A stretch of DNA of 64,000 nt, taken from the NCBI RefSeq assembly GCF_007743815.1, contig NZ_CP036265.1, positions 4,149,059 to 4,213,058 of the forward strand. The letters are read 5' to 3'. Of this stretch, positions 12,701 to 38,020 are shown piece after piece (position 1 is the first letter of the stretch; every line of letters starts with the position of its first letter). Below the pieces are notes generated by a model that saw only the letters and a program-made list of their open reading frames with translations, had not been told where the DNA came from and made no database searches. Both the position numbers and the translations under genes were made by a program. This DNA is from Alienimonas californiensis (lineage in GTDB: Bacteria > Planctomycetota > Planctomycetia > Planctomycetales > Planctomycetaceae).

Positions 12701-12708
12701 GCGGGCTG

Positions 12709-12811
12709 GGCGAGCGGGAGACGTCAGTCCCCTGAGCGAACGCCGCGTTCGTTTACGCTGTGGCTCAAAGCGAATCCGGGGCACTCAGGGGGCTGACGCC
12801 CCCCGCTCGCC
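12709..12811. repeat. Family-1 palindromic element, inverted pair (MITE-like): arm GGCGAGCGGGAGACGTCAGTCCCCTGAGCG, about 43-bp spacer, arm CACTCAGGGGGCTGACGCCCCCCGCTCGCC
   Basis: Lies in the intergenic region between the 11369..12700 ORF and tsaD. Same core as about 20 other copies in the window. Confidence 0.8.
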
Positions 12812-12819
12812 TTGGGCGT

Positions 12820-13905: not shown

Positions 13906-15398
13906 GAAGACTCGTCTTCGTCTTCCGTGAGGACCTTCAGCGCCGCGGCGATGTGGGGGTCCTCCGTCGGCTCGTACTCCTCGTCCTGCTCCGGCGCCAC
14001 GGCGCCGGCGGGGCGGTCGCGGACGATGCGGTCGATGTTCAGGTTGCGCCGCTGCGGCAGGGTGAGGGGGATGCGGTAGCCCTCGTTCGGCGTGACGCCC
14101 CACTCGCCGTCCTCGTCCGACTGGCGGGCCGGGCGGTTGATCGGGCCGGGACGCTGAATGTTGGCCCCGCTCGGCCGCAGGTAGGCCGCGGTGGTGAGCT
14201 TCAACGCCGTGCGGCCGCCGCCGAGGTTGATGACCGTCTGCACGCTGCCCTTACCCCAGGTGCGTTCGCCGATCACCACCGCCCGGTTGGCGTCCTGCAA
14301 CGCGGCGGAGACGATTTCACTGGCGCTGGCGCTGAACCGATCGACCAGCACGGCGACCTTCAGCCCTTCCGCCGGGCCGCCCGGCAGGGCGTCGAACGAC
14401 TGCGACGCGACGTTGCGGCCGGCGGTGGAGACGATGCGGCCTTCCTTGAGGAACAGGTCCGCCACCGCGACCGCCTGATCGAGCAGCCCGCCCGGGTTAC
14501 CGCGAAGATCGAGGATCACGCCCTCCGCCCCGGCCTCCTTCAACTGGAGGAGGGCTTCGGTCAGTTCGCGGTCGGTGCCGGCGCCGAACCGGGTGACCCG
14601 CAGCAGGCCGATCTTCGGCTCGCCTTCCTCGCCCCCATCTGAGTTTTTGGAGGGCAGCAGGTAGTCCCAAGAGCCGTCGGCCCGGCGGGACTCGCCCAGC
14701 ACCGTCGGCACCCGCACGTCCGCCCGGACGACGGTGATCTCCAGCGGTTCCTCCTGCCCGGGCCGCATCAGGCCGAGTTTCACCGGCTCGCCCTCCGGCC
14801 CCTTGATGCGGGCGGTGACCGCGGAGGGGTCGAGACCGTCCACGCTTTCGCCGTCCACCTTCACGATCATGTCGCCGGCCCGCACGCCGGCCTCGGCGGC
14901 GGGGGTGCCGGGCAGCGGGGCGGTGATCGTGAGGCGGCCGGTCTCCGTGTCCGGCAGGATCTGCACGCCGATGCCGATGAACTGGCCCTCCACCTCCCGG
15001 GTGAACAGGCCGACCTCCTCGTCGTCCAGATAGGTGCTGTAGGGGTCGAGCTTGGCCACCATCCCGTCGATCGCCGCTTCGAGCAGCTCCTCGCGGCTGA
15101 CTTCGGAGACGTAGTTGCGTTCGATCTGTTCGAAGGAATCCGCGAACTCCCGCATCAGACGGAGCAGTTCCTCCCGATCCTCCCGCGGATCGACGGCCTT
15201 TTCGTCGGCGAGCGGCGGGGCGTCAGCCCCCCGTGCGGGTTCTTCCTGGACAGGCTCTTCCCGAGCGGGTTTCTCCTGAGCAGGTTCTTCCTGAGCCCAC
15301 GCCACGCCGACGCCCGGCAGGGCGTCGGACCCCGTGAAGGCCAGCGAACCGGCGAGCAGTCCCGCGGACAGAGACCGAAGGCGGCGGGAGCGGGGCAC
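13896..15398 (-). CDS. ctpA: C-terminal processing peptidase, S41 family (CtpA-like), with PDZ domain and signal peptide
   Basis: Signal peptide [19 protein letters not shown]...AWA-QEE. PDZ segment GIGVQI...[10 protein letters not shown]41 catalytic region [12 protein letters not shown]...[16 protein letters not shown]...[11 protein letters not shown] start mapped at about 15398. A family-1 repeat is in-frame inside the N-terminal linker (RGADAPPLA). Confidence 0.85.
15207..15235. repeat. Family-1 palindromic element (single arm) inserted in-frame within ctpA
   Basis: ggcgagcggcggggcgtcagccccccgtg; encodes ...[11 protein letters not shown]... on the minus strand between the signal peptide and the catalytic domain. 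Confidence 0.75.
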
Positions 15399-15540
15399 GG
15401 GGCGATTCTCCGGGCGGGCGGGGGGAACGCCGGACTGGACCGGCGCACGGAACGGACGGCAGTGTAGGCCGCCCGCCGCCGTGCCGTACACTGGCCGCGT
15501 GCACCTGCCGTTTCCCGATCTCGAACTGGCGCCTCCCCCG

Positions 15541-15598
15541 GGGGCCGACGCTCCCGGCTCGCCTGCTCCGGGGGCTCACGCCCCCGGCTCGCCCGGCG
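15541..15598. repeat. Two tandem partial family-1 elements (gctcccggctcgcc / gctccgggggctcacgcccccggctcgcc)
   Basis: Located at or upstream of the AddB-like gene start; in the long track ORF they encode [19 protein letters not shown]. Confidence 0.75.
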
Positions 15599-15606
15599 GG
15601 GGGACG

Positions 15607-18600
15607 GTGCGTTTGCTGTGCGGCACGCCGCGGGGCGGGAAGACCGGGGCCCTGCTGGCCGAGTACGCCGCCGCCCTGCAGGCCGCGTGGGCCGAGGGCC
15701 GCACCGGGGCCTGCCTGTGGCTCACCCCGAACCGCCTTAGCCGGGCGGCGGTGCAAAGCGATCTGGCCCGCGAGATCGGCGGGCCGTTGCTCGAGCCGGG
15801 GGTGCGAACCTTCGAAAACCTGACGGACGAACTGCTCTCCGACGGCCGGCTGTGGCACGCCCTCGACGCGGCCCAGGGCGCCCCGTCACGAGAACCGGCG
15901 GGGGGCGAGGGTCGCCGCTACCGCGTGCTCTCCGGAGTCTCCCGCCGACGGGTGTTGCGGGCGGTGATCGACGCGGAGGCCGCCGCCGGCCGGCTGTCGC
16001 ACTTTGCCCGCATCGCCGGGGCCGGCGGGTTCCTCACGCTGCTCGAACGCCAGGTGCGGGCCTGGAAGTACGCGGAGGTCTGGCCGGACGATCCCACCCT
16101 GCAATCCGGCGGCGCGGCCCGGCGGGACCTGGTGCGGCTGTACGCGGCCTATCAGGATCGCCTGCAGAACCCGCCGGACGGCGGCCCGCCGCTGTTCGAC
16201 GCCGAGGGCCGCGTCTGGGTCGCCCGCAATCTGCTGTGCGGCGCCGGGGCGGCGCTCGGCTCCGACGGGTCGGGAAACGGGCGGCGGCTCGATCTGCTGG
16301 TCGCCGACGGCTTCACGAGTTTCACCGCCACCCAGCGCGACCTGCTGGCCGCGCTGGCGGCCTCCGCGAACGCGGCCGTGATCGCCCTGCCGCTGGAGCA
16401 GGGCTCCGGCATGTCGGCCAAACCCCGACCCGGCGTCCCGTACCGGCCGGACCTGTTCGAGCCGGTCTGGCGGACCGTCGACGAACTCTCCGACCCGCTC
16501 GCGGAGCAGGGCGGCGAGTCGATCTACCAGTGGCACGCCCCCCGCCGGCCGGACGACGCGTTGGGGCATCTCGCGGCGTGGCTGTTCGACGAATCCGCCG
16601 AACCGGCCCCGCGGCGGACCGTCGCCAAGGGCGTCACCCTGTACGCCGCCGGGCGGATCGAGGACGAGGCGCGGGCGACGGTCGCCGCGGTGAAGGGCCT
16701 GCTGATGCGGGGCGAACCGGCGGAGCGGGTGGTTGTCACGGCCCGGGACGTGGGGACTTACGCCGAGGAATTCTTCCGCCTCTGCGACGCCGGCGGGGTG
16801 CCGGTGGACGCGGACCGCCCGCTGCCGCTGGCCGGTCGGCCGGCGGTGCGGGCGCTGCTGGCCCCGTGGCGGGTCGAGGCCTCCGGCTGGGGGCTGCGGG
16901 GACTGCTGGGCGTGCTCCGCGACCCCTCGTTCGGCTTCCCCGCCGACGCCGCCACCGCGACGGCCCGCGTCCTGCGGTTTGCCAACGTGGGGGAGGACCG
17001 CCGCACGGCGCTCAAGGCAGTGCGCACCTTCGCCCCCGCTGCCGAGGGCGAGGAACCGAAACCGCCCGACCGCGACGCCCCCCCGGAGGCTGATCGCCGG
17101 CTGACGGCGGCCGCCGTGGAGGCGTTGAACGCCGCACTCGAACCGACCCGCACCGCGACGGACCCGGCCGGCTGGGTGGCGCGGTTGCGCACCCTCATCG
17201 AGACCCTGGGGTTCAATCCTGCCGCCGCCGAGTTGCCGCGGGAGCCGTGGGAGGACGACGCCGCCGACCTCGACGCCGCCCTCCGCTGGCTGAGCGAAGC
17301 CGCCGCCGAGCACGCCGCCGACGCGGACCCAAACCACCAGGCGGACGACGGGCTGCTCTCGCTGGGCGAGTTCCTGCACTGGGCGGACGAACTGCTGGCC
17401 GCGGCCCGCGTGCCGGGCCCGCCGGCGGCGGCGGGCGGCGTGGCATTCGTCGATGCCGAGACGGCCCGCACGGCGGGGTGCGATCACCTCTTTCTGCTTG
17501 GTCTGGGCGAGGGCCAGTTCCCCCGGCCGCCGAACCCCGCCGACCCGGCGCCGCCGCGGTCCGGGGAGGAGGCGGACGATCCCGCGGCCCTGGCCGACGC
17601 CAACGCCCGGGCGGAGATGCTGCTGTTCTACGGCGTCGTCACCCGGCCGACGAAATCGCTGACGCTCTCCTGGACGACCCGGGACGAGAAGGGCCGCGAA
17701 CGCTTCGCCGGGCCGTTCGTGGAGGCGGTCCGCGATCTGTTCGCCCCGGATACGTTCCCGGAGCCGAAGACCGCCAGCCTCTCGCCGATCCCGGCGCTCG
17801 ACCGCGCGCTGACCGCCGCGGACGCCCGGGCGCTGGCCGTGTCGGAGCTACGCACCGGCGGGCAGGCGGGGCCGCTGGCCCGGTTGCTCGTCACTCCGGG
17901 AGAGGCCCCGGCCGCCCGCTGCGTGCTGGGCGCCGCGACGATGCTCTCCGCCCGCAGTCGGACGAAGGGGCCGACGGCGTTCGACGGGCGGCTCTCGACG
18001 CGGTCCCAAGTCCATTGGGCGAAGCGGCGACCGGTCGGCTACCAGTTCAGCGCCAGCGAACTCGAAACGTTCGCCGCGAACCCGTTCCGCTACTTCCTCG
18101 ACCGCGTGTTGCGGGTGGAACGGCCCGACCCGCCGGGGCTGCGGGAGGATCGGATGAACCGCGGCACCGCCATGCACGCGGCCCTCTCCCGGGCCTACCG
18201 GCGGGCGTTGGAGCAGTCCGAGGACGCTCCGACCGTGGAGCTGCTCCAGGAAGAAATCGCCGCCCTGAAGCCGCGGTCTCGCTCGCTGGCCCGCTGGCAC
18301 GACGGGCTGTGGGAGACGGAACGCGCCCTGCTGGCGGCGTGGTCCGAGGCGTTCCCCACGCAGGCGGCCGCCTACGCCGGGACCTTCGCCGCCGGCTGGG
18401 CCGAGGGGCCGACGGTGCATCGGCTCGAAGCCGCCTTCGGCCGCCGCACCCCGGAGGAGGAGGACGACACGGAGGACCTGTCGCAGCGCCCCCCAGCCGC
18501 CCGCTTCCCGAACGACCCCGGCGGGGTGCCCGTCACCGGCCGCATCGACCGGCTGGACTTCGGGTTCGTGACGTTGGAGTCCGGGGAGACTGTCCCGGCG

Positions 18601-19047
18601 TACAACATCGTGGACTACAAGACGGGTTCGTCCGTGCCCAAGTTCACCGCGGAGCGGGTCGCCGCGGGGGCGTCCCTACAGTTGGCCCTCTACGCCGTCG
18701 CTGCCCGCCGCTGCGGGCTGACGCCCCCGGACGCGGAGCCGCACATGCTGGTGTATTGGGGTGTGAAGACGGAGGGGCCGCGGAACGGCATCTCCCGCGG
18801 CGGCAAGAAGTGCGTCGCCGAGTTGCTGCCCACCTTAGAGGAGGACCTCGACGCCGTGGTGCCCCTGCTGGCGGGGGCGATCCGCAGCGGGGTCTTCCCG
18901 ATCTGCCCGGAGAAGGGCGAGACGCAGACGTTCTCCGATCACGCCCGCGTCGGCCGAGCCGCGGAGGTGCGGGCCGTCGCGGAGCGGCTCGAAAAGTGGC
19001 CCCCGCCGTGGCGGACCGGCCCGGTTGTGGGGGACGAGGATGAGTGA
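15607..19047 (+). CDS. AddB-like PD-(D/E)XK nuclease family protein (helicase-nuclease complex subunit B-like)
   Basis: Degenerate N-terminal P-loop LLCGTPRGGKTG. C-terminal nuclease motif NIVDYKTG...QLALY with Cys residues (CPEKGETQTF). Immediately followed by and co-oriented with a UvrD-type AddA-like helicase. Start tentatively the GTG at 15607, downstream of the repeats. Confidence 0.7.
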   Translation: MRLLCGTPRGGKTGALLAEYAAALQAAWAEGRTGACLWLTPNRLSRAAVQSDLAREIGGPLLEPGVRTFENLTDELLSDGRLWHALDAAQGAPSREPAGGEGRRYRVLSGVSRRRVLRAVIDAEAAAGRLSHFARIAGAGGFLTLLERQVRAWKYAEVWPDDPTLQSGGAARRDLVRLYAAYQDRLQNPPDGGPPLFDAEGRVWVARNLLCGAGAALGSDGSGNGRRLDLLVADGFTSFTATQRDLLAALAASANAAVIALPLEQGSGMSAKPRPGVPYRPDLFEPVWRTVDELSDPLAEQGGESIYQWHAPRRPDDALGHLAAWLFDESAEPAPRRTVAKGVTLYAAGRIEDEARATVAAVKGLLMRGEPAERVVVTARDVGTYAEEFFRLCDAGGVPVDADRPLPLAGRPAVRALLAPWRVEASGWGLRGLLGVLRDPSFGFPADAATATARVLRFANVGEDRRTALKAVRTFAPAAEGEEPKPPDRDAPPEADRRLTAAAVEALNAALEPTRTATDPAGWVARLRTLIETLGFNPAAAELPREPWEDDAADLDAALRWLSEAAAEHAADADPNHQADDGLLSLGEFLHWADELLAAARVPGPPAAAGGVAFVDAETARTAGCDHLFLLGLGEGQFPRPPNPADPAPPRSGEEADDPAALADANARAEMLLFYGVVTRPTKSLTLSWTTRDEKGRERFAGPFVEAVRDLFAPDTFPEPKTASLSPIPALDRALTAADARALAVSELRTGGQAGPLARLLVTPGEAPAARCVLGAATMLSARSRTKGPTAFDGRLSTRSQVHWAKRRPVGYQFSASELETFAANPFRYFLDRVLRVERPDPPGLREDRMNRGTAMHAALSRAYRRALEQSEDAPTVELLQEEIAALKPRSRSLARWHDGLWETERALLAAWSEAFPTQAAAYAGTFAAGWAEGPTVHRLEAAFGRRTPEEEDDTEDLSQRPPAARFPNDPGGVPVTGRIDRLDFGFVTLESGETVPAYNIVDYKTGSSVPKFTAERVAAGASLQLALYAVAARRCGLTPPDAEPHMLVYWGVKTEGPRNGISRGGKKCVAELLPTLEEDLDAVVPLLAGAIRSGVFPICPEKGETQTFSDHARVGRAAEVRAVAERLEKWPPPWRTGPVVGDEDE

Positions 19048-19060
19048 ATTGCTCGCACCC

Positions 19061-19089
19061 GCTCCGGGGGCTCACGCCCCCGGCTCGCC
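19061..19089. repeat. Family-1 palindromic element (gctccgggggctcacgcccccggctcgcc) between the AddB-like stop and the AddA-like start
   Basis: Lies in the 55-nt gap between the two genes; encodes PGAHAPGSP in the long track ORF upstream of the likely true start. Confidence 0.75.
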
Positions 19090-19102
19090 GGCCGCTCCGC
19101 GG

Positions 19103-22100
19103 ATGCACCCGCAGCAGGAGGCGGCGGTCTTTCATTCCGGTTCGTCCGTCGGCCTGAGTGCCGGGGCCGGGTGCGGGAAGACGTTCGTGCTGATCGAACG
19201 GTTCCTGCACGAACTCGACCCGGCCCGGGAGCAGGACAGTCCCGGCCCCTACGGCCTGCCGGCGGTGGTGGCGATCACCTTCACGGAGAAGGCCACCGCG
19301 GAGATGGTCTCCCGGGTGCGGCGGGAGGTCGGTCGCCGGCTCCGCGACCCGGCTCGAACGGAGCAGCGGGTCTGGTGGCGCACGATCCAGCGCCGGCTGG
19401 ACACCGCCCGCATCAGCACGATCCACGGGTTCTGCACGGCCCTGCTGAAGGAGAACGCCGCCGCCGCGGACCTCGATCCGGCCTTCCGTACCGTCGAGGC
19501 CACCGAGGAGGCCGACCTGCGGACCGACGCCGTCGACGCCGTGCTCAAAACCGCCCTGGCCCGCGACCCGGCGAAGCACGACGACCCGGAGGCGCTGTCC
19601 CCCCGCGACCTCGTCACCCGCTGCGGGCTGACGGCGGTGCGGGGCGTGTTGCTCAACCTGCTCGACACCGACCGCGAACTGCTCGAGAAGCCGTGGACGA
19701 CCGCGGACCTCGTCGCCGCCCGGGCCGGGGCGTGGGCGCGGGAACTGATCGACCCGCAGTTCGACGCCCTGCGGGACTCGGCCGACTGGGCGGCCCTGCG
19801 GCCGGTGCTGCAACGGAACCTGACGACCACCCCGGCGAAGGCCGCCGACCGGCGCACGCTGCTGACCGAGCTGGAACTGCTCCTCACCGGCCCGCCGCCG
19901 ACGCCGGATCGGCTGCGGGACCGGCTGGCGGACCTGCGACCGCTGGCCCTCACCGGCAAGCTGGGGCAGTCGAAGAAGATGTGGGAGGGCGACGACTACG
20001 GGGTGATCCAAGCCCACCTCGCCCCGTTCCGCGGCGCGATCGACGGTCTGCTCAAGACGCTGGGCGACAGTCCGCCGGACTTCGCCGCGGCCCTGCCGAC
20101 CGTGCGGGCCTACCTACCGCTGGCCGCCGCCGCGGCGAAGCGGTACGAACGCAGCAAGCGGGACACCGCCCGGCTGGACTTCGGCGATCAACTGCGGCTC
20201 GCCGCCCGGCTGCTCCGCGACGACGCGGTGCGGGAGAAGGTCGCCCGGTCGATCCGGCTGCTGATGGTCGATGAGTTCCAGGACACCAGCCCCGTCCAGG
20301 CGGAGTTGGTCCGCCAGATCGCCGGGCTCGCCGCGGGGGAGGACGCCGGCAAGCTGTTCCTCGTGGGGGACTCGAAGCAGAGCATCTACCGCTTCACCGG
20401 GGCGGACCCGGAGGTCTTCGGCCGGATGCGGGGCGAACTGGCGCCCGCCGGGCGGTTGCCGCTGACGAAGAATTTTCGCAGCCGGCCGGAGATCCTGCGG
20501 TTCGTCAACGCCCTGTTCGATCCGGTGATGCCGGCTTACGAACCGCTGGAATCGCCGCCGGTGGAGGGCGGGGGCGTCGGGGATCTGGAATCCGGCGGCG
20601 GGCCGCACGTGGAGTTCCTTCTGCCGACCGTCCCTGCCGGCCCGGACGGTAAGAGGGCGACGGCCGCGGCCTGCCGGGAGGTGGAGGCGAAATGGGTGGC
20701 CGCCCGCATCCGCGAACTGCTCGACGGCAGGCCGTGCGTGCGAGTCAAAGGGGCAGCGGACCGCCCGCCCAAGCCGGGCGACGTCTGTCTGCTGTTCCGA
20801 ACGTTGGGCGACGTGAAGCTCTACGAGGACGCGCTGCGGGAGGTGGGCGTGGACGCCTACGTCGCCGGCGGCAAATCATTCTTCGCCCAGCAGGAAGTGC
20901 AGGATCTGGTGCACCTCCTCCTCTGGCTGGACGACCCGGACGACACCCTCTCGCTGGCCGGCGTGTTGCGGAGTCCGCTGTGCGGCCTATCGGATGACAC
21001 TTTGTTCACTCTTACCGACGCCGAGGCGGTGGGGGAACGGCGATCCGCCCAAGCCGTTCAAGCCGTTCACCCCCCGGGGGCGGTCATCTTGGACGCCTTG
21101 GACGCCTCGGGGGAGAGTGTCTCCGAAAATCATCGGGGCAGTGTCGCATCGGTGCGACAGGCTCCGCTGGCCGCCGCCGTTCTTGATGACACCCCGTTCT
21201 CTCTGCTGGAGGATCAGGCGGAGCGTTTGGCCCATGCTCGGGTCGTGCTGCGGGATTTGCTGGCCTGCCGGTCGCGGCTCGGGCCGGGCGGGTTGTTGGA
21301 GCGGGCGGTGCAGGCCTTTGGGTACGACGGCTCCGTCATGTTGGAGTTCCTGGGCGAACGCAAGCTGGCGAACCTGCAAAAGCTCCTGCGCATGGCCCGC
21401 AACGCCGACGCCGCCCCCGAGGGCGGCCTCCGCGGCTTCGCGGCCCGGCTGCTGGAGAGCGTCAAGGAAACCCTCACCGAGGACGAAGCCGCCACCGTCA
21501 CGCAGGACGAAAACGTCGTCACCCTGATGACCGTGCACGGCTCGAAGGGGCTGGAGTTCCCCGTGGTGGTCGCCTGCGATCTGGACCGCAAGCCGCCGTC
21601 GGTCTCGGTCTCCGGCACCTTCGACCCGGAACTGGGCCCGATCGTGCCGCTCTCCTGCCAGCACGGAGAAGACCTGATCGACCACGGGGCGGAGATCTGG
21701 AAGGCCCGGGAGCAGGTCGCCGAGGAGGCCGAAAGCGTGCGGGTCTTCTACGTCGCCGCCACCCGGGCGGCGGACCGGCTGATCCTCTCGGCCGCCCGAC
21801 CGCTGGCGAAGGACGAGGCGCCCGGCGGCGCCGCGGACGCCCCGACGGGCGTGCCGCTCAAAACGCTGGACGCCGTGTTCGACCTCACCACCGGCAAGCC
21901 GCGGGAGGACCGCTCCGCGGGCGATCCGCTGTTCTTCGCTCCGCAGGTCCTGGTGCACCACGACAAGCCGGCCGGGACCGGCAAAGCCCTGCCGGGGCCG
22001 AAGCGGGGCACGCCGCCGGAAAAGTTCGCGGACGTGCTGCGGTCCACGGAACCCTGCGAACCCTACGACCTCCGCCGCCCGCTGCCGTCGCCGCGACCCT

Positions 22101-22714
22101 CCGCCGTGCATGTCGCCGAACTGGCGGAGCGTCTGGCGAGCAATGAAGAGCGGGACGAACTCGCCCGGTTCCCCATCGCCGAGCCGGGGGCGTCTGTCCC
22201 CGGGGAGGCGAGCGACGACCCGGTCAACTCGGAGACCGTGAGCGATCCCCTCGCCGACGCCCGCGGTCGATTAGCGGACGCACTGCAACTATCGCGTCGC
22301 GTCGAACAGCGGCGGGGGCTCGACTATCACATTCCTCCGCTGGCCGACGTGCTGCCTGCAGTGACGGGACGAATCGAACGGTTGATCCTGCCGGCGGCGC
22401 CGAACGGGGGCCGAACAGGTCAAGGCGTCCAAGGCGTTCACCCCCCGGGGCCGGACGCCTTGAACGCCTTGGGCATGTCGGCGGGCGTGGCGGCGGCGAC
22501 GGCCGCGGAGGTGGCCGGGGTCGGGCTGCCGGATCGGCTCGTCCCGCGGTTATGGGCGGAGCGAACCGCGTTGGCGCCGCTGGGAGGAGGGGAGGCGGCC
22601 CTGCTGCTGGTCGCCGCGGACGGTGCGACCCGGCTCGTGCGCACGGAAGAACTGCCGGCGGGGGCCTGTTCCGACGACCGCGTCGCCGAGCTACTGCGGG
22701 GGGCCCTCCTGTGA
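19103..22714 (+). CDS. AddA-like ATP-dependent DNA helicase (UvrD/REP superfamily 1)
   Basis: Motif I GAGCGKTF, Ia AITFTEKATAEM, II LMVDEFQDTSPVQAEL, IV NFRSRPEIL, VI LMTVHGSKGLEFPVVV. Start ATG at 19103 downstream of a family-1 repeat. Contains two in-frame family-2 palindromic repeats. Confidence 0.85.
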   Translation: MHPQQEAAVFHSGSSVGLSAGAGCGKTFVLIERFLHELDPAREQDSPGPYGLPAVVAITFTEKATAEMVSRVRREVGRRLRDPARTEQRVWWRTIQRRLDTARISTIHGFCTALLKENAAAADLDPAFRTVEATEEADLRTDAVDAVLKTALARDPAKHDDPEALSPRDLVTRCGLTAVRGVLLNLLDTDRELLEKPWTTADLVAARAGAWARELIDPQFDALRDSADWAALRPVLQRNLTTTPAKAADRRTLLTELELLLTGPPPTPDRLRDRLADLRPLALTGKLGQSKKMWEGDDYGVIQAHLAPFRGAIDGLLKTLGDSPPDFAAALPTVRAYLPLAAAAAKRYERSKRDTARLDFGDQLRLAARLLRDDAVREKVARSIRLLMVDEFQDTSPVQAELVRQIAGLAAGEDAGKLFLVGDSKQSIYRFTGADPEVFGRMRGELAPAGRLPLTKNFRSRPEILRFVNALFDPVMPAYEPLESPPVEGGGVGDLESGGGPHVEFLLPTVPAGPDGKRATAAACREVEAKWVAARIRELLDGRPCVRVKGAADRPPKPGDVCLLFRTLGDVKLYEDALREVGVDAYVAGGKSFFAQQEVQDLVHLLLWLDDPDDTLSLAGVLRSPLCGLSDDTLFTLTDAEAVGERRSAQAVQAVHPPGAVILDALDASGESVSENHRGSVASVRQAPLAAAVLDDTPFSLLEDQAERLAHARVVLRDLLACRSRLGPGGLLERAVQAFGYDGSVMLEFLGERKLANLQKLLRMARNADAAPEGGLRGFAARLLESVKETLTEDEAATVTQDENVVTLMTVHGSKGLEFPVVVACDLDRKPPSVSVSGTFDPELGPIVPLSCQHGEDLIDHGAEIWKAREQVAEEAESVRVFYVAATRAADRLILSAARPLAKDEAPGGAADAPTGVPLKTLDAVFDLTTGKPREDRSAGDPLFFAPQVLVHHDKPAGTGKALPGPKRGTPPEKFADVLRSTEPCEPYDLRRPLPSPRPSAVHVAELAERLASNEERDELARFPIAEPGASVPGEASDDPVNSETVSDPLADARGRLADALQLSRRVEQRRGLDYHIPPLADVLPAVTGRIERLILPAAPNGGRTGQGVQGVHPPGPDALNALGMSAGVAAATAAEVAGVGLPDRLVPRLWAERTALAPLGGGEAALLLVAADGATRLVRTEELPAGACSDDRVAELLRGALL
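21036..21095. repeat. Family-2 palindromic element (CAAGCCGTTCAAGCCGTTCACCCCCCGGGGGCGGTCATCTTGGACGCCTTGGACGCCTCGG), in-frame within the AddA-like gene
   Basis: Inverted arms CAAGGCGTTCAAGGCG / CGCCTTGAACGCCTTG with slight degeneracy; encodes AQAVQAVHPPGAVILDALDASG. Confidence 0.7.
22418..22470. repeat. Family-2 palindromic element (CAAGGCGTCCAAGGCGTTCACCCCCCGGGGCCGGACGCCTTGAACGCCTTG), in-frame within the AddA-like gene
   Basis: Encodes GQGVQGVHPPGPDALNALG near the AddA C-terminus. Confidence 0.7.
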
Positions 22715-23988
22715 TGTCGCCCGATGCTCGTTCGACTCAGGGGGCTGACGCCCCCCGCTCGCCAGGGCCGCCGCTGTCCGACGTGCGGTGGTTGGAGTAC
22801 CTCCGCGAGCGCCCCGATCTCGTCGCGGCGGCCGCCGAGCGGGGGAACGCCCCGGCGGAGCAGGCTGCCTTGCGGAAGGAGCACCCCGCGGAGGCCGTCG
22901 CCGCGGCCCTCACGCTGGCCGAACTCCGAGGCCGGGCCGTCGAAAAGTTTCGCCTCGGCGACCGCATGTGGTTCGACCGGGTCCGGCTCGAACAGGCCAC
23001 CGGCGAAGCCGTCGCCCGGCACAAGGCCCGCCGGTTCGCCGCACGAATGAACGCAGGCGAGCCGGGGGCGTCAGCCCCCGGAGGGAACGGCTCGCCGGTG
23101 TTGGACCTCTGCGGCGGGCTGGGCGGGGACGCGATCGCTCTGGCGGAGTTCGTCCCCGTCCGCACCGTGGACCGCGACCCCGTCGCCGGCTGGATGGCGA
23201 CGCAGAACGCCGCCCTCCACGGCGTGTCCGACCGGGTGACGGCGGAAACGGCGTCCGCGGAGGAGGTGAACGTGTCCGGGGCGTTCGTGCACCTCGACCC
23301 GGACCGCCGCCCCGGCGGGGAACGTGGGGCCAAACGGCGGGAGAAGCGGCTCGAAGATTACGCCCCGGACCTGTCGTTCATGCGGTCCCTCGCCGCGTCG
23401 GCGGCCGGCGGGGCGATCAAGGTCAGCCCGGCCTCGAACTGGGGCGGCAAGTTCCCCGACTGCGAAATCGAGCTGATCTCCCACGGCGGCGAGTGCCGCG
23501 AGGCGACCGTCTGGTTCGGTTCCCTCGCCGACCCCGGCGTGCACCGGGCGACTGTGTTGCTGGACGACGACACGCACACCCTCGCCGCCGACCCGTTCGC
23601 CGCGATTCCGACCGTCGGGCCGATCGCGGACTACCTCTACGACCCCGACCCGTCGGTCGTGCGGGCCGGGCTGGTGGACGAGCTGTGCGAACGGACCGGC
23701 CTTCAACGGCTGGACGACGCGGAGGAGTACCTCACCGGACCGCGGGTCGAGACCCCGTTCGCCACCGCGTTTCGGGTGCTGGCGGTCTGCCCGAACAACG
23801 CCCGCCGCTACCGGGCCGCGATCGGCGAGACGGGGGCCGGCGACGTGGAGGTGAAATGTCGCCACCTGCCGACCGACGCCGCCGCCGTCCGCCGCAAACT
23901 GCCGCTCACGCCGGGCGGGCCGCGGCGGACGCTGATCTTCGCCAAGCTCGAAGGCAAAGCCGCCGCGGTGGTGTGCGAGCGGGCGTGA
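22714..23988 (+). CDS. Class I SAM-dependent methyltransferase (GxGxG fold; the C-terminal region may be THUMP-like)
   Basis: SAM-binding motif VLDLCGGLGGDAIALAE. ATG overlaps the AddA stop (TGATG). A family-1 repeat at 22737-22764 lies in-frame near the N-terminus ([12 protein letters not shown]); an alternative GTG start sits just downstream at about 22779. Confidence 0.6.
   Translation: MSPDARSTQGADAPRSPGPPLSDVRWLEYLRERPDLVAAAAERGNAPAEQAALRKEHPAEAVAAALTLAELRGRAVEKFRLGDRMWFDRVRLEQATGEAVARHKARRFAARMNAGEPGASAPGGNGSPVLDLCGGLGGDAIALAEFVPVRTVDRDPVAGWMATQNAALHGVSDRVTAETASAEEVNVSGAFVHLDPDRRPGGERGAKRREKRLEDYAPDLSFMRSLAASAAGGAIKVSPASNWGGKFPDCEIELISHGGECREATVWFGSLADPGVHRATVLLDDDTHTLAADPFAAIPTVGPIADYLYDPDPSVVRAGLVDELCERTGLQRLDDAEEYLTGPRVETPFATAFRVLAVCPNNARRYRAAIGETGAGDVEVKCRHLPTDAAAVRRKLPLTPGGPRRTLIFAKLEGKAAAVVCERA
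23056..23083. repeat. Family-1 palindromic element inside the methyltransferase gene (ggcgagccgggggcgtcagcccccggag), in-frame (GEPGASAPGG)
   Basis: Same core hairpin GGGGGC-GTCA-GCCCCC. Confidence 0.7.
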
Positions 23989-24066
23989 GGCGAGCGAGGG
24001 GCGTGAGCCCCCCGTGTTCTCGCACGCGTCCCGTCGCACGGCGGGCTGACGCCCCCTCGCTCGCCC
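23989..24066. repeat. Family-1 inverted pair (arms GGCGAGCGAGGGGCGTGAGCCCCCCGTG and GCGGGCTGACGCCCCCTCGCTCGCCC), intergenic
   Basis: Immediately follows the methyltransferase stop at 23988. Convergent gene ends are on either side. Confidence 0.75.
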
Positions 24067-24076
24067 TCAAACGTCC

Positions 24077-24541
24077 TTACTGCATGGCCGCTTTGAAGTT
24101 GAACTTGCCGGCCGGGACGAGGGGGAACTGGCGGCCGCTGCCGTCCGGGATGCCGTAGGCGACGACCACGCCGCTGCGGTTCTCGGCGATGTAGATGACG
24201 CCGGCGCCGTTGTCGGTGCTGCCGGCGACGACGGCGTACTCGGCCAGGCCGGCCCGGTCGCCAAAGTCCGCGGCGATGCTGCGGGCGTAGCTGGTGTTGA
24301 ACCCGCCGTTGCCCAGCACCCCGCCGACCAGCGTGCCGGTCGTGCTGTCCAGCACGAACACCGCCTCGCCCGGCCGGCCGATCGACAGCGGGCTGGTGAA
24401 CACCGCCATCTTCTCGTTCCGGTCGACCGCCTCGGCCTTCAGCGAGGCCGGCGAGAGCACGGCGGTCCCGACGGACCCGGCCACGGCCCCGACGGCCAGG
24501 AGAGCGAGGGGCGCCAGCGAACGGCGGGGAGACAGCGACAT
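24077..24541 (-). CDS. Hypothetical secreted protein (signal peptide LAPLALLAVGAVAGSVGTAVLSPAS)
   Basis: ORF with an N-terminal signal peptide and Gly/Val-rich beta-like composition. No family recognised. Confidence 0.5.
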   Translation of the reverse strand: MSLSPRRSLAPLALLAVGAVAGSVGTAVLSPASLKAEAVDRNEKMAVFTSPLSIGRPGEAVFVLDSTTGTLVGGVLGNGGFNTSYARSIAADFGDRAGLAEYAVVAGSTDNGAGVIYIAENRSGVVVAYGIPDGSGRQFPLVPAGKFNFKAAMQ

Positions 24542-24625
24542 GGGTTCGGCTTTCGGGAGACGGCCCGCGACCGCGGGCGACGGTGAGGGGAACGCCCGCA
24601 GTCTACCGACGCCCGACAGCCCGAG

Positions 24626-24707
24626 GCGAGCGGGGGCGTAAGCCCCCTGAGTTCTCCCAGCGGGGCCATCACGAATCGCACGGGGGGCTCACGCCCCCAC
24701 GCTCGCC
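24626..24707. repeat. Family-1 inverted pair (GGCGAGCGGGGGCGTAAGCCCCCTGAG ... CACGGGGGGCTCACGCCCCCACGCTCGCC), intergenic
   Basis: Lies between the minus-strand hypothetical gene and the plus-strand oxidoreductase gene. Confidence 0.75.
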
Positions 24708-24805
24708 TCAGCCCCCGGTCGCTTTGCACCGGCGCCCGCCTGCCGGCTAGCCTGCCCCCTGTCTCGACCGTCGTTCGCCCGTCTCCTCGTCTCCCCCCCG
24801 CCGCG

Positions 24806-26044
24806 ATGCCCGCCCAACCGTCCGACGACTACCCGACCACCAACGGCAGCCTGAACCGCAAGCTGCGGATGGCCCTGGTCGGCGGCGGCAGCGGGTCGTT
24901 CATCGGCCGGGTGCACGCCACCGGCGCCCTACTGGACAACCGGGCCGAATTGGTCGCCGGCGCCCTCTCCAGCAACCCGGAGCGGGCCAAAAAGAGCGCC
25001 CCCAGCTACGCCATCCCCGAGGACCGGGCCTACACCAGCATCCACGAACTGGTGGAGAAGGAACTCGCCCGGCCGGAGGACGACCGGATCGACTTCGTCT
25101 CGATCGCGACCCCGAATCACACCCACTTCGAGATCGCCAAGACGGCCGCCGAGGCGGGCTTCAACGTCGTCTGCGACAAGCCGATGACCTTCGACCTCCC
25201 CCAGGCCGAGGAGCTGGTCAAGGTGGTCGAGAACACCCCCGGCGTGTTCGCCCTGATGCACAACTACACCGGCTACCCGCTGATCCGGCAGGCCCGGGAG
25301 ATGTGCTTGAACGGGGACCTCGGCGAGATCAACGCGATCCGCAGCAACTACATCCAGGGCTGGCTGCGGGAGCCGCTGGAGGAGACCGGCCAGAAGCAGG
25401 CCAGCTGGCGGGCCGACCCCGGCAAGAGCGGCGCTGCGGGGGCGTTCGGCGACATCGCCACGCACGCCTACAACATCGGCCGGTTCATGACGGGCTGTCT
25501 GCCGGAGGAGCTGTCCTGCAACCTGAAGTCCTTCGTGGAGGGCCGCAAGCTGGACGACTACGGCCACGCCGTCGTCCGGTATCAGAACGGGGCGCTGGGC
25601 ACGGTGACGGCCTCCCAAATCTCCCACGGCCACGAGAACAACCTGTACGTGGAGATCGACGGCACGAAGGCCTCGCTGGTTTGGCGGCAGGAGAACCCCA
25701 ACGAGATGTGGGTCCGCCAGAACGGCCAGCCGGCAAAGCTTTACACCCGCGACCCGAACGCCGCGTACCTCTCGGACCTCGCCCGCAACAGCTGCCGCCT
25801 GCCCAGCGGGCACCCGGAGGGCTTCTTCGAAGCCTTCGGCAACGTCTACCGGGCCGCCTACGACGCCATGATCGCCCGCTCCGAGGGGACCAGCTTCCAA
25901 GGCCGCTCCGAGACGACCCGCGACACCCTCTACCCCAACGTCTACGACGGGGCCGAGGGCATGTTGTTCGTCACCAAGTCCGTCGAGAGCAGCGAACAGA
26001 ACGGTGCCTGGGTCAGCCTGAAGACCGACTACGCCCGGCGGTAA
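24806..26044 (+). CDS. Gfo/Idh/MocA family oxidoreductase
   Basis: N-terminal Rossmann segment [19 protein letters not shown] and [30 protein letters not shown] are typical of the family. Confidence 0.85.
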
Positions 26045-26057
26045 TCGGGCGGGATCA

Positions 26058-26125
26058 GTCCCAAGGCGTTCAAGGCGATCACCCTCCGGGGGCGGACGCC
26101 TTGAACGCCTTGCCGGTCCGGCTCA
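26058..26125. repeat. Family-2 palindromic element (CAAGGCGTTCAAGGCGATCACCCTCCGGGGGCGGACGCCTTGAACGCCTTG), intergenic
   Basis: Between convergent genes (oxidoreductase stop 26044 and cyclase stop 26135). Confidence 0.7.
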
Positions 26126-26134
26126 TCCGGGCGG

Positions 26135-27983
26135 TTATTTCTCGTCCACTCGAATCACGCCGTCCCAGCCGGGGGGGGCGGTGCGGTGGCCTTCGGCGAG
26201 GCGGACCCGCAGGAAGTCCTGGGCGAGGTCGAAGGCGGGGTGGTCCTGCAGCACCTCGGCGGCCCGCGGCCAGTCGCCGGCGGTGAAGGCGGCGACGGCC
26301 TCGGCGTAGCGGGCGAGGTCCCGGTCGGTCAGCGGGGAGCCCTCCGGTGCCGGGCCGTGAGGCGGGAGCAGTTCGCTGACCCGCACCGCCCGCTGCATTT
26401 TCGCCGGCCGCACCGTCCCCAGCGGCCGCACCCGCAGCGGGACGTCGCCGGCGCTGGCCCCCTGTGCGGCGAGCACCGCGTCCGCCGTCGCCGCGTCGCA
26501 GACGACCGGCACCCGCAGCGGGCCGCACAGGCCTTCCAAACGGCTGGCGAGGTTCGCCGTCGGGCCGAACACGGTGATCTTCGCCTGGTCCTCCGTCCCG
26601 ATCCGCCCCGCGACCGCGGGACCCGTCGCGACCCCCACCCCCACCCGGAAGCCGGCCAGCGGATCGCCGGGGTCGCGGCGGGCGGCGAAATCCCCGGCGA
26701 TGCGAACCGCGGCGGTCGCGGCCTTGAGCGGGGCGGTCGGGTCCGTGGTCGGCCAGCCCCAGAAGGCGAGGGCGGCGTCGCCGAGGAAATCGCCCGTCAC
26801 CCCGCCGGCCTCGCGGATGCGGTGCGTCATCACGCTCAGCGCCGCCGACACCCGGGCCAGCAGCGCCGGTAGGTCGGCGGAGAGTTCTTCGCTGGTTCGG
26901 CTGAACCCTCGCAGGTCGCAGAACACCACGCTGGCGGTGCACTCCGCCGGGGCCAACGCCGCCGGGTCCGGGGACTCGCCCAGCGCCTCCAGCACGCGGG
27001 GGGGGAGGAAGGGCCGCAGCGTCGCCGCCTGCCGTTCGAGCCGACCGCTGCGATCGGCGGCGGAGACGATCTCCGCGACCAGCGAGACGAACCGCACATC
27101 GGCGGCCCGCTCCGCCGGCCCGGCGGCGTTGGACCCGAGCACCAACAGGCCGCGGTCGGCCGGGGCGGTGCCCGATCCTTCGGACTGGGCGTCGGCGATC
27201 GGCACCACAAACGCCCACCCGCCGACGGACGGGCTGAGGATCGCCTCGCCGGCGTTCAGGGAGGCCGTGATCAACTCCTGGGGGACCTGCGGCGGACCGT
27301 TCAACTCGTTGCGGCCGGACCAGCTTCGCAACTGCACCGCGTGCGCTCCGGGGACGGACGCCCCCGGCTCGCCCTGTTTGACGCGGGCGACGACGGCGAC
27401 GGCTTCGGCGTCCTGCACGCCGGCCAGCAGCAGGCCGCAGAGCGCGGGCAGGCGGCGGGCGTCGTCCGGCGTGCGGAGCACCTCCGGCAGGCGGGCGACG
27501 GCCTCGAAGCGGCGATCCGGCCGGGTGACGGCCACGCCGGCGAGGGTGCGGGCGTCGAAGGTGAGGGCGCCTTCCGACAGCGTGCCGACGGCACTGGAGC
27601 CGGGGGCGTCGTCGCCCGGGAAGCCGTCCTCCCCGGGGAAGACGGTCCCCTCGTCCTCCGCGGCGGCGGGCGGGCGGACCCGAAAACGGGTGCGGCCGGC
27701 GGCGAGCCGGGCGGCGTCCTGGAGATGGACCGTGCCGTGCACCCGCTCGCCGTTGCAAAACAGCGGGTTGCGGCCGTCGGTCCCGTCGCGGATCGTCAGC
27801 GTATCCGCGTCGCCGACGGAGACGCGAAAATGCACCCGCGAGAGCCGGGGATCGCTCGGCACCCGCAGATCGCAGAGGGCGGAGCGGCCGATCGAACGGG
27901 ATTCGCCCGGCCGCACGGTCAGCGAACGCCCGCCGTCGACGGCGATCGTCCAGCCGTCCGCTTCCCCGGGCTCCCCGCTCACG
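26135..27983 (-). CDS. FHA domain-containing adenylate/guanylate cyclase (class III nucleotidyl cyclase)
   Basis: FHA segment GRSALCDLRVPSDPRLSRVHFRV...LTIRDGTDGRNPLFCNGERV. Cyclase catalytic domain VVFCDLRGFSRTSEEL...GDFLGDAALAFWGWP...GVGVATGPAVAGRIG...FGPTANLASRLEGL. GTG start overlaps the kinase stop (GTGA) at 27979-27983. The N-terminal ~295 aa of track ORF 26135..28867 are Arg-rich and rejected. Confidence 0.8.
27336..27364. repeat. Family-1 palindromic element in-frame within the cyclase gene (gctccggggacggacgcccccggctcgcc)
   Basis: Encodes KQGEPGASVPGAH in the linker between the FHA and cyclase domains. Confidence 0.7.
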
Positions 27984-30195
27984 CCCCGGCCCGATCGCGG
28001 GTAAACCAATACAGTAGGCCGCCCAGCGTCAACACGAGGCCGCCGACGACGAACGCCCCGACCAGCCGCAACCTTTCGCCCAAGCCTTCCATCAATCGCA
28101 GGGCATCGTCCCGAGGTTCCTGCACGACAACGACCCAGTCCGTCCCCCCGACCGGGGCGAACGCGGAGATCCACATCCCGGCGAAGGCCTGCCCGCCGTC
28201 GACCGCCGCCGTCGGATCGAGGTGCCGATCGGTGCGGAAGCTGCCGCGGCCGTCGGCGAGGGCGGCGTCGATGGCCTGCCGTTCCCCGTCCGGCAACTCG
28301 ACGACGATCCTGGTGTCGGGGCGTTTGGCGAGCCAGGGATGGTCCAGCAGGCGGCCCGACTGCCGTTCGTACAGGGCGATCACCCGGGTGTAGCGGACGG
28401 CGTCGTCGCCCGCCTGCCCCTCGTGGGTCACGGTGCGTTTCGTGGAGTCGTATTCGGACAGCAACGCGTCCAGGAGCGCCGTGCGGGCCAGCAGGGCAAC
28501 GATGTTGCCCTCGGCGTCGCGGATCGGGGTGGTGATGGCGAGCTTCCACTCCTCCGTGCTGGTCGAGCGGTACGACAGGGAGACGTGCGTGCGGTCGACC
28601 GGCGGGATCGAGCCGACCGGCGTGTCTGGGGGAAGGTGCTTGCCCTGCCCGTGGAAGTAGTCCCGCCAGACGAAGCTGTGGTCGACCACTTCGTCGTCGG
28701 GCGGGTTCCGCCACCGGGTCATGCCGGTCGCGTCCTGCAGGAACCAACTGAGGTCGGTGGCGCCGTCCGCGGTCGCGGCGGCCTGTTCCTCCTGTTCCTC
28801 GACCACCGCGGGCGTGACGAGCGAGAGGTAGGAGAACAGCGTCGACCGGGCCGCCCCCTCCTCCCACCCGGCGGCGGTCGCGTCGGCGATCAGGTCAGCG
28901 AGGCGGGGATCGGCGGCGATCTGTTCCAGTTCGACCCGCTGGCGATTCACCACCTGTTCGAGGCTGTGGGCGACGAGGCCGGCGGAGAGGGCGTTCGCCT
29001 CCATCGCCCGCTCCACGACCTGACCTCGCCCGGCCTCCAGGGTGCGGCCGACGAGCAGCGTGCCCACGACCAGCAGCGCCGCCGCGACCGCCGCCGGGCC
29101 GAGCAGTGCCCAGCGGGCCCGCGAGCGGCGGGCGGCGTCCTCGGAGCGTTGCCGCAGGGCGGTGCGGACCGCCTGGGCGTTCGGGTAGCGCTGGGTACAG
29201 TCGGGGTTCAGGCAACGATCGACGATCCGCACCAGGGCCGCGTCGATGCCGCGGACCTTCAGGTGCTCCGTGGGGCGGGGGGCGTCCTTCACCTCCTTGG
29301 CGTAGACGGCCAGCCGTTCGCCGGGGGAGCACCGCTTGAGGCGTTCGGACAGTTCGTCTGTCCGGTGCGGCGGGTGGCCGGTGAGCATCTCGTAGAGGAC
29401 GGCGCCAAGGGCGTACACGTCCCAGCGGGCGTCCGGGGCGGCGTCCGGGGCGACCTGCTCCGGGGGCATGTAGAACAGCGTGCCCAGCGGCCGGCCGCCG
29501 GTGCGGGACTCCGAGGCGGAATCGTCCGCGGTGCCGCCGCCGTCGCCCGCGCCCACGCCGCGGGCCTGCCCGAAGTCGCACAGCCGCGGCCCGCCGTCGC
29601 GGTCCAGCAGGACGTTCCCCGGCTTCAGATCGCAGTGCAGGATGCCGCTGCCGTGGGCGTGCACCAGCCCCGCGGCGATGCCCTCCGCCAGTTCCGCGGC
29701 CCGTGCCGGAGGAAGCGGCGCCGCGGTGTCGAGCAGATCCGCCAGCGAGCCGTCCGGCAGGTACTCCATCACGTAGTACGGCGGGTCCGCCTCCCAGCCG
29801 ACGCCCAGCAACTGGACGACGTGCCGACTGGCGTCCAGCGCTGCGAGCTTCTCCACTTCCCGGGTCAGCAGCGGCCAGTCGAGGGCCCGGACGTGGCGAA
29901 ACGTCTTCACCGCGACCTGTTTTCCGGTCGCCGATTCCGTCGCCAGCCAGACGGCCCCGAACCCCCCGCGGCCCAGCAGGTGCCGGAGGCGGTAGCCGGG
30001 CGGATCGGCCGGTTTCGGCTCCGCCCGGCGGGCGCCGGGGCGGCTAAGCTGCCGGGTGACCGCCACGTCCGCGGGGCTCGGGCGAACCGTTTCCGCCAGC
30101 GGATCGAAGCCGGAGTACCCCTCGCCGCCGCTGGCCGGTCGCGGCTCGGCGGGGGCGTTGCGGGCGTCCTGCGGCGGGGCGGGGGCGGTGGGCAT
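27979..30195 (-). CDS. Serine/threonine protein kinase with C-terminal transmembrane segment and large extracytoplasmic sensor-like domain
   Basis: Kinase subdomains GRGGFGAVWLA...VAVK, HCDLKPGNVLL, DFGQAR, PPE. TM segment ALLGPAAVAAALLVVGTLLV and a second C-terminal TM. ATG at 30195, downstream of a family-1 repeat remnant at 30347-30363. Confidence 0.85.
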   Translation of the reverse strand: MPTAPAPPQDARNAPAEPRPASGGEGYSGFDPLAETVRPSPADVAVTRQLSRPGARRAEPKPADPPGYRLRHLLGRGGFGAVWLATESATGKQVAVKTFRHVRALDWPLLTREVEKLAALDASRHVVQLLGVGWEADPPYYVMEYLPDGSLADLLDTAAPLPPARAAELAEGIAAGLVHAHGSGILHCDLKPGNVLLDRDGGPRLCDFGQARGVGAGDGGGTADDSASESRTGGRPLGTLFYMPPEQVAPDAAPDARWDVYALGAVLYEMLTGHPPHRTDELSERLKRCSPGERLAVYAKEVKDAPRPTEHLKVRGIDAALVRIVDRCLNPDCTQRYPNAQAVRTALRQRSEDAARRSRARWALLGPAAVAAALLVVGTLLVGRTLEAGRGQVVERAMEANALSAGLVAHSLEQVVNRQRVELEQIAADPRLADLIADATAAGWEEGAARSTLFSYLSLVTPAVVEEQEEQAAATADGATDLSWFLQDATGMTRWRNPPDDEVVDHSFVWRDYFHGQGKHLPPDTPVGSIPPVDRTHVSLSYRSTSTEEWKLAITTPIRDAEGNIVALLARTALLDALLSEYDSTKRTVTHEGQAGDDAVRYTRVIALYERQSGRLLDHPWLAKRPDTRIVVELPDGERQAIDAALADGRGSFRTDRHLDPTAAVDGGQAFAGMWISAFAPVGGTDWVVVVQEPRDDALRLMEGLGERLRLVGAFVVGGLVLTLGGLLYWFTRDRAGA

Positions 30196-37963: not shown

Positions 37964-38020
37964 GCCCCCGTAGCGAACGATGCCGGGGTGTCGCCCTCAG
38001 GGGATGACGCCGCCGTGCTC
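37951..38020. repeat. Family-1 degenerate inverted pair overlapping the gyrA stop (GCCGGGGGCGTGAGCCCCCGTAGCGAACG ... CCCTCAGGGGATGACGCCGCCGTGCTC)
   Basis: The gyrA C-terminal residues ...KPGA* are encoded by the left arm. Confidence 0.6.

Follow-up and report, generated by a model that had tools for sequence, protein, structure and literature searches.

A family of small hairpin repeats in Alienimonas with two copies read in-frame in predicted loops of AddA

Introduction

Sequences of the repetitive extragenic palindromic (REP) kind also occur inside genes, where the inserts that they encode often comprise 20-30 residues and sometimes come two per gene (Di Nocera et al. 2013, PMC3733652). Intragenic REPs are conspicuous in repair genes, including those of UvrABCD, the UvrD/Rep helicase, RecBCD and PolA, and the encoded inserts are argued by the same authors to occupy flexible loops (PMC3733652). 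The classic case of palindromic elements lying in-frame, and tolerated, in unrelated protein-coding genes comes from Rickettsia (Rickettsia palindromic elements, RPE); they were viewed as selfish DNA that the protein fold can accommodate (PMC10969869). In this study, we analyzed a palindromic repeat in a 64,000-nt stretch of the genome of Alienimonas californiensis, a member of the Planctomycetaceae (contig NZ_CP036265.1, positions 4,149,059 to 4,213,058; hereafter the window, whose first letter is position 1). The repeat is named family 2, to set it apart from another palindromic repeat of the window, family 1, and two of its copies are read in-frame within a gene for an AddA-like helicase. 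The locus provides a planctomycete case, with comparative data, of small palindromic repeats lying in-frame in essential-type and conspicuously DNA-repair genes, and it bears on the question whether repeats inserted in such repair genes are accidents that the cell tolerates or something beyond that. Family 2 probably belongs among the small non-autonomous elements of the REP and RPE type and is tolerated in permissive loops of AddA.

Copies and structure of the family-2 palindrome

Three copies of family 2 were found in the window by motif scan and translation, all within 5.1 kb. Two are in-frame in the addA-like open reading frame (ORF) and one is intergenic, as the earlier note on this DNA had described.

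21050-21109, + strand: copy A, decayed family-2 palindrome, which has 60 nt including an additional 9-nt unit and is read in-frame in addA as QAVQAVHPPGAVILDALDAS
22421-22471, + strand: copy B, family-2 palindrome, in-frame in addA, encoding QGVQGVHPPGPDALNAL
26062-26112, no strand: copy C, intergenic family-2 palindrome in a 90-nt spacer between two convergent genes

The copies at 21050, 22421 and 26062 are a real repeat family. The 16-mer of the arm has 12 matches in the window at up to 3 mismatches, compared with 1.0 +/- 1.0 in shuffled sequences, and 12 matches were reached in 0 of 100 shuffles. A covariance model was built on seven copies, three from the window and four from relatives. 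On the + strand it scored copies A, B and C, all of them part of its training set, at 66, 76.7 and 75.3 bits, respectively, and the best score elsewhere in the 64-kb window was 14.5 bits.

The core of the element is 51 nt long, which equals 17 codons, and the elements measure 51-60 nt with a 19-bp stem. The 9-nt unit SAAGGCGNN stands two or three times in tandem in each arm, and between the arms is a centre of the CCCCSGGGG type. The units possess no hairpin of their own, and the whole element forms a single long stem-loop. Copies B and C each have 17 Watson-Crick pairs out of 19 and the decayed copy A has 13-14, so that the description of the repeat as a perfect palindrome was too strong. Folded as DNA, copy B reaches -21 kcal/mol (z = -4.9) and copy C -23.8 kcal/mol (z = -5.4); copy A, with two units on the left, both AAGCCG, and three on the right, folds no better than shuffled sequences (z = +0.2). 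No T-run, the U-tract of an intrinsic terminator, stands behind the hairpin in any family-2 copy, and copies A, B and C all went without a match at E <=1 in an Rfam scan of 20500-26600.

The host gene addA and the two insertion loops

Copies A and B share one host gene.

19103-22714, + strand: addA-like gene, with the start that yields P0001, a database protein of 1203 aa

The long ORF 19025-22714 is a 100% match to the A. californiensis 'ATP-dependent helicase/nuclease subunit A', and its translation includes ...AQAVQAVHPPGAVILDALDAS... and ...GQGVQGVHPPGPDALNALG..., which are the two in-frame copies. The product carries the Pfam domains UvrD-helicase and UvrD_C, as a member of AddA should, and matches B. 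subtilis AddA by sequence. Its first Foldseek match is AddA 4CEH_A, followed by chain A of 4CEI, 4CEJ and 3U44. The adjacent upstream ORF (15334-19047) is AddB-like with PDDEXK_1 and ADDB_N domains. The addA gene is intact and its helicase motifs are conserved both in A. californiensis and in Alienimonas sp. DA493, a relative that also carries in-frame copies.

An AlphaFold model covering residues 30-1229 of AddA (mean predicted local distance difference test, pLDDT, of 85) places both inserts in segments with pLDDT <50. This supports the earlier suggestion that the palindromes mark loops tolerant of insertion.

21035-21154, + strand: site-1 loop, predicted disordered and lineage-specific, directly after the conserved LRSPLCGLSDDTLF helix, holding copy A
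22403-22465, + strand: site-2 loop, predicted disordered, in the C-terminal nuclease-like domain, holding copy B

At site 1 the low-pLDDT segment comprises model residues 642-681, and the copy-A peptide (647-666) is fully inside it. At site 2 it comprises model residues 1098-1118, between the beta-strands 1083-1093 and 1121-1128. The copy-B peptide corresponds to residues 1104-1120, of which the last two (1119-1120, codons 22466-22471) are just beyond the segment. Site 2 is 31 residues long in the window AddA vs 8 (RLDDGWLS) in A. chondri. At site 1, the AddA of a metagenome-assembled genome (MAG), P0007, contains a complete in-frame inverted dimer of family 1 (L049 11933-12070), and thus the site-1 loop was hit independently; the AddA of Schlesneria has an unrelated insertion there. 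Both inserts point, independently of pLDDT, to a tolerance of site 1 for insertions.

The PD-(D/E)XK domain (PF12705) gave no match in the window AddA or in P0001-P0014, that is, in the whole Alienimonas clade, and it is present in most of the more distant AddA homologues listed, including those of Gimesia and Schlesneria. The DYKTG block of the latter two aligns to AGVAAAT in the window AddA, where the D...DYK catalytic motif is lost. Judged from these alignments, the AddA of the Alienimonas clade may be nuclease-dead in its C-terminal domain (window ~22300-22714), with AddB perhaps as the sole nuclease. Copy B would thus lie in a beta-hairpin loop of a seemingly inactivated nuclease core.

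A family-1 unit is also translated in-frame in addA, at window 22176-22212, as AEPGASVPGEAS; it too falls in a segment with pLDDT <50 (model residues 1027-1042), and the orthologous position of DA493 (L003 ~9260-9290) reads GEPGTSAPGEGG. In the draft genome of A. chondri (L004 6588-10008), addB is represented by two overlapping ORFs of 871 and 323 residues, for which a frameshift, a pseudogene or an assembly error is possible.

Occupancy of the addA sites in relatives

The AddA of DA493 is 81% identical in amino acids to that of A. californiensis, and its gene holds three in-frame family-2 copies. Copy s1 (L003 8126-8176) is the orthologue of copy A and copy s2 (L003 9536-9586) that of copy B, each at the same addA site, and copy s3 (L003 9317-9367) is private to DA493. 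In A. chondri and all seven other homologues of the Alienimonas clade in the alignment, both sites are short or empty. The encoded segments are therefore lineage-specific, as the alignment proposed in the earlier note could show, and occur only in A. californiensis and DA493 among the homologues compared. Moreover, the two species share novel flanking residues that have no counterpart in A. chondri, namely LPxxP before site 2 and an SV...SV-rich stretch after site 1. With the same two sites filled in DA493 and the novel flanks shared, the insertions would predate the split of the two species, and the simplest history places both of them in the ancestor that the two had in common. The idea that they could be recent found no support, given that DA493 carries both. 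Conservation of the segments as protein without the DNA palindrome, or a lack of further copies, would have spoken against the repeat; the DNA, instead, retains the palindrome in the DA493 orthologue while the peptide diverges, and more copies are present in DA493 and A. chondri.

Conservation of the hairpin and drift of the peptide

The insert peptides of A. californiensis and DA493 are identical at 7 of 17 and 8 of 17 residues (41-47%), compared with 81% for the whole AddA. In the seven copies of the model, on the other hand, 90% of the stem cells are paired. Changes on both sides are found in 7 of the 19 stem pairs, a number reached in 0 of 500 shuffles, and slid registers give 0-2. Between the orthologues B and s2 three pairs are altered on both sides and all are still paired. 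The best reading is that the constraint acts on the nucleic-acid hairpin and not on the peptide, and that the peptides are passengers.

All five coding copies (A, B, s1, s2 and s3) are read in one common phase. One of the other phases of family 2 contains a stop codon and another gives an arginine-rich peptide, and thus the choice of phase is explained by tolerance alone. The concatenated insert peptide of 51 residues, searched against a database of 5.8 billion sequences, gave 142 word-sharing candidates, none of them at E <=10. A 30-residue segment from the window, searched against 1.84 billion cluster representatives, revealed no other protein with the insert peptide; its only match in that set, which holds cluster representatives only, was an AGVEAINA tandem-repeat protein, rejected as unrelated.

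Copies resemble each other by genome and subfamily

Identity between orthologous copies is 71% for A/s1 and 76% for B/s2, about that of four-fold degenerate sites in addA between A. californiensis and DA493 (0.70). Copies within one genome are 84% (A/B), 92% (B/C) and 88% (s1/s2) identical. The DA493 copies consist of G-type units (GAAGGCG...CGCCTTC) and the A. californiensis copies of C-type units (CAAGGCG...CGCCTTG), and one single element of A. chondri combines both types. Likeness also extends across species between copies at different loci. Copy B matches a non-orthologous A. chondri copy from the flagellar locus (L002 670-720) at 48 of 51 nt (94%), where the neutral-site identity of the two species is 0.58 and the probability of such a match about 1e-8. 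Copy s3 of DA493 is identical to another A. chondri copy at 44 of 51 nt, and both are members of a common AAGATGCC subfamily. This pattern indicates one of two processes: either gene conversion or template switching, in which 9-nt units are gained and lost, homogenises the copies, or a conserved master sequence replaces them.

Abundance and distribution

In A. chondri three family-2 copies are located in an 8-kb flagellar locus (flhA, flhF, fliA), all of them intergenic. Those at L002 5804-5854 and 6890-6940 are independent matches of the covariance model, being outside its training set. In total, nine Alienimonas copies, seven of which trained the model, score 64-78 bits with this one model. 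The three copies per species span 1.5-6.3 kb in A. californiensis, DA493 and A. chondri. Three uniform random points would fall within 5.1 kb of 64 kb with P = 0.018, and no copies were found in the other loci scanned; in the regions scanned, family 2 is thus rare and clustered. A comparison of the A. chondri flagellar locus with the window by tblastx found no synteny.

In a strict DNA scan, only one stretch of A. chondri and one Gemmataceae MAG were returned from the species-representative genomes, and family 2 has so far been found almost only in the genus Alienimonas. The Gemmataceae MAG, from Lake Baikal, contains a hairpin downstream of a stop codon (L001 7776-7825) with arms identical to those of family 2 (CAAGGCGTTCAAGGCG...CGCCTTGAACGCCTT) and an unrelated A+T-rich loop. 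A relaxed scan of metagenomes found no relatives of family 2. It yielded 44 palindromes with AAGGCGNNN-periodic arms, which were rejected, their loops and hosts being unrelated and the periodicity imposed by the search pattern. A recurrent, unrelated palindrome (…CCACRAAGGCGNNGAAGGCGCACAAAGG…loop…CGCCTTCTNCGCCTTTGTGG…) was observed on the metagenome contigs L016, L027, L030, L031, L034, L042, L044 and L046, which are of low G+C content and have Ga01233xx identifiers. In A. chondri, five tandem 15-nt units (GATGCCCTGATTCCA) are located ~45 nt upstream of a family-2 copy (L002 545-615).

The spacer of copy C

The intergenic copy is flanked by two convergent genes.

24806-26044, + strand: GFO/IDH/MocA oxidoreductase gene, with its stop 17 nt upstream of copy C
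26135-28867, - strand: FHA/adenylate-guanylate cyclase gene, running towards the oxidoreductase gene and with its stop 22 nt downstream of copy C

A separate, weak, terminator-like small hairpin follows copy C at 26116-26132 according to a consensus scan. The orthologous spacer contains unrelated sequence in four relatives. In a MAG (L049 16690-16810) it holds a different hairpin whose arms are composed of 7-nt units GAGTGAG/GAGTAAG…; the palindromes that accumulate in this convergent spacer differ from lineage to lineage and are unrelated. The exact orthologous spacer is filled in DA493 and one MAG by a RAYT-like transposase gene of ~205 residues.

Family 1 and the RAYT-like transposase

Family 1 has the consensus GGCGAGCG-GGGGGCGTCAGCCCCC-YGWG, with a core GGGGGC-GTCA-GCCCCC preceded by GGCGAGC. 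Many units form inverted pairs, which give long hairpins, and several lie inside long ORFs. Roughly 20-30 units are present in the window (16-nt core, <=3 mismatches).

12697-12823, 13852, 15216-15585, 18713, 19066, 22186, 22740, 23064, 23990-24070: family-1 units, first part of the window
24625-24710, 37954-38014, 42257, 43629, 44617, 46795-46889, 53166, 59406-59524, 63118-63201: family-1 units, second part of the window

RAYT-like Y1/HUH transposase genes of ~200 residues were found in relatives at four loci.

L003 13102-13731: RAYT-like transposase gene
L050 16836-17447: RAYT-like transposase gene
L052 10001-10594: RAYT-like transposase gene
L053 10001-10606: RAYT-like transposase gene

The transposases of DA493 and of the MAG that fill the spacer of copy C score 23.6 and 25.1 bits on Pfam Y1_Tnp, barely over the cutoff of 23 bits, and are under the cutoff on NCBIfam REP_Tyr_transpos; homologues of the gene are named 'REP element-mobilizing transposase RayT' in the sources. 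All four RAYT-like loci examined in relatives are bracketed by inverted family-1 units (GGCGAGCGGGGGGCGTCAGCCCCC), and in two of them (L003 and L050) the stop codon of the transposase falls inside the downstream unit. Family 1 therefore looks like a RAYT-type system of Alienimonas, judged by this arrangement. A. californiensis encodes a RAYT homologue, P0130, elsewhere in its genome, and a tblastn search of the window found no transposase homologue there.

The family-2 model gave nothing beside the RAYT-like genes of L003, L050, L052 and L053, and at these loci family 2 thus lacks the flanking position known from REPIN-RAYT systems. On family 1 the model scored at most 14.5 bits for the window copies and 24 bits for one dimer in a relative, the outer AAGGCG/CGCCTT ends of which match the family-2 arms. 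A similarity of the two centres was thus not seen with the model. The proposal that related centres let both families share a mobilisation mechanism is therefore not supported, with low model scores on family 1 and RAYT-like genes flanked by family 1 only. A kinship based on the shared words AGGCG and GGCGTC was also dismissed, the words being too short and too G+C-rich to count as evidence.

Two of the family-1 units lie in the ORF 22552-23988 (THUMP-like/methyltransferase, longest start), at 22740-22755 and 23064-23079 (…EPGASAPGGNG…). The first of them may precede the true start codon. A sub-threshold Rfam match to the Acido-Lenti-1 RNA, with 23 bits vs a gathering score of 37, covers the unit at 23055-23081.

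Discussion

A hairpin repeat of low copy number, with the behaviour of small non-autonomous elements of the REP/RPE type and tolerated in permissive AddA loops, is in our view a reasonably probable description of family 2. Its copies, spreading as mobile or copied elements, would settle at gene 3' ends, in intergenic spacers and occasionally inside genes, and the entry of two of them into addA would date from the ancestor that A. californiensis shares with DA493. There these two would have persisted, presumably neutral for AddA function, owing to a length that is a multiple of three, a stop-free phase with mild residues, and disordered, insertion-tolerant loops. The copies would be kept similar to one another and to a conserved master by gene conversion, template switching or re-insertion.

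Several observations weigh against this explanation. No signature of transposition was found: the copies lack a duplicated target site, a conserved tag at their ends and a transposase associated with them. The local clustering of the copies is untypical of dispersed REPs, and the copy number looks very low, since the family-2 model found none in the remaining 59 kb of the window and none in ~111 kb of other Alienimonas-clade loci (L004, L049-L053). The strict genome scan did not return A. californiensis itself and hence gives no genome-wide count. Copy A has lost much of its pairing, which means that maintenance of the hairpin is not uniform. The low pLDDT at the inserts may partly reflect thin alignment depth. 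Finally, conservation of the master between species greatly exceeds the neutral rate, which could mean a host function.

It is for this last point that a host function stays a live, though rather unlikely, alternative. The hairpins would then be nucleic-acid elements under selection, acting as RNA in transcript 3'-end formation, in exonuclease protection or in translation or transcription pausing inside addA, or acting as DNA, with the inverted 9-bp units read by a dimeric or multimeric protein bound to them, an arrangement that would resemble a protein-recognition array. Preservation of the stems through compensatory changes is in line with this, as are the 94% conservation of the master between species with 58% neutral identity, the four intergenic copies outside long ORFs, at least two of which are within ~30 nt of a stop codon, and the position of copy C between convergent genes and ahead of the weak terminator-like hairpin. 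However, the locations are not conserved: the A. chondri copies are in a flagellar locus with none in addA, and the spacer of copy C holds unrelated sequence in four relatives. The hairpins are also long and without U-tract, copy A is decayed, no Rfam family matches, and a regulatory role for a translated hairpin in two different addA loops would be ad hoc. That the addA sites are insertion hotspots hit independently in A. californiensis and DA493 is improbable. The species-specific arms at orthologous sites, where copies are less alike than within one genome, would fit such a history, and so would the family-1 element that struck site 1 in another lineage and the third, private copy in the addA of DA493. 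Yet the novel residues beside the palindromes are common to both species and lacking in A. chondri, the divergence of the orthologous copies is about what neutral change since the split would give, and two coincident hits in two lineages would be required.

We give very little credence to a function of the repeated peptide (17-20 residues) as a protein module, for example a linker or an interaction motif, with an incidental DNA palindrome. It would account for the same reading phase in all five coding copies and for the retention of the segments in two species, but not for the low peptide identity of orthologues, 41-47% compared with 81% over the full protein. In addition, the segments are predicted to be disordered, four Alienimonas copies lie outside genes, and no other protein among the 1.84 billion cluster representatives has the peptide. 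A product of chance or of base composition is next to inconceivable even in a genome of 71% G+C and a window full of other hairpins, for the observed arm matches were reached by no shuffle, the model scored 66-77 bits against a background of at most 14.5 bits, and near-identical copies exist in two other species.

A bolder reading is improbable. Family 2 would in that case be an actively maintained hairpin system that spreads over short distances, with copies refreshed from a genus-wide master, and not decaying selfish DNA. If true, it would imply either a dedicated recognition protein or copying coupled to replication or repair, by hairpin template switching or gene conversion, of a kind not described for REPs. 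The recurrence in addA, which encodes a helicase for the processing of double-strand-break ends, might in that case point to a functional tie to break repair rather than to simple tolerance.

The explanation by tolerated elements, for its part, makes family 2 a new example of a known phenomenon and reveals no new type of system. Two insertion-tolerant loops of AddA are marked by it. The comparison of orthologues, in which the peptide drifts, the stem co-varies and the copies track the genome instead of the locus, offers a compact test case for the homogenisation of hairpin repeats by conversion or by re-insertion.

Comparison with known repeat systems

Family 2 resembles the GTAG/CGTC-tagged REPs, short hairpin repeats that are found for the most part between convergent genes or at the 3' ends of genes and of which a minority is translated inside genes (PMC3733652). 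It differs from them in size, REPs having 20-40 nt and stems of 5-13 bp (PMC3733652) compared with 51-60 nt and a 19-bp stem in family 2. Furthermore, it has arms built of 9-nt units in tandem, it looks low-copy and clustered in the regions scanned, and it does not flank the RAYT-like gene in the four loci examined. The flanks of the nine family-2 copies share no unpaired terminal GTAG/CGTC tag, and CGTC occurs in the family only within paired arm units of some copies. As in the REPIN-RAYT system (Bertels and Rainey 2011, PMC3116915), hairpin repeats cluster around a master and are vertically inherited and lineage-specific. A REPIN, however, consists of two inverted REPs with a spacer and flanks a single-copy RAYT (PMC3116915), and family 2 shows neither feature.

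With the bacterial transposable elements of the miniature inverted-repeat type (MITEs) the family has in common that it is small, non-coding and non-autonomous, with an inverted-repeat architecture and occasional in-frame fusions. Unlike MITEs, it is one whole palindrome without terminal inverted repeats bordering an internal region, and no parent insertion sequence was identified; no direct repeats that would mark a target-site duplication stand beside any of the nine copies. Integron attC sites, parS/dif-type sites and DnaA boxes were considered as well and, no search aimed at them having been made, seem to fit neither the sequence nor the context.

Like RPE, family 2 is a palindromic repeat lying in-frame in a coding gene and tolerated there, as seen for copies A and B and the three DA493 copies in intact addA. 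Compared by description, RPE are ~100-150 bp long with tens of copies and are restricted to Rickettsia, while family 2 has a third of that size and belongs to another phylum. An RPE family also encodes a conserved peptide, whereas the family-2 peptide is not conserved. Since the REP tag, the size, the RAYT flanking, the MITE hallmarks, the U-tract and the Rfam match all failed, family 2 stands outside the named families and is assigned to none of them; we file it as a new, so far undescribed family of a known kind.

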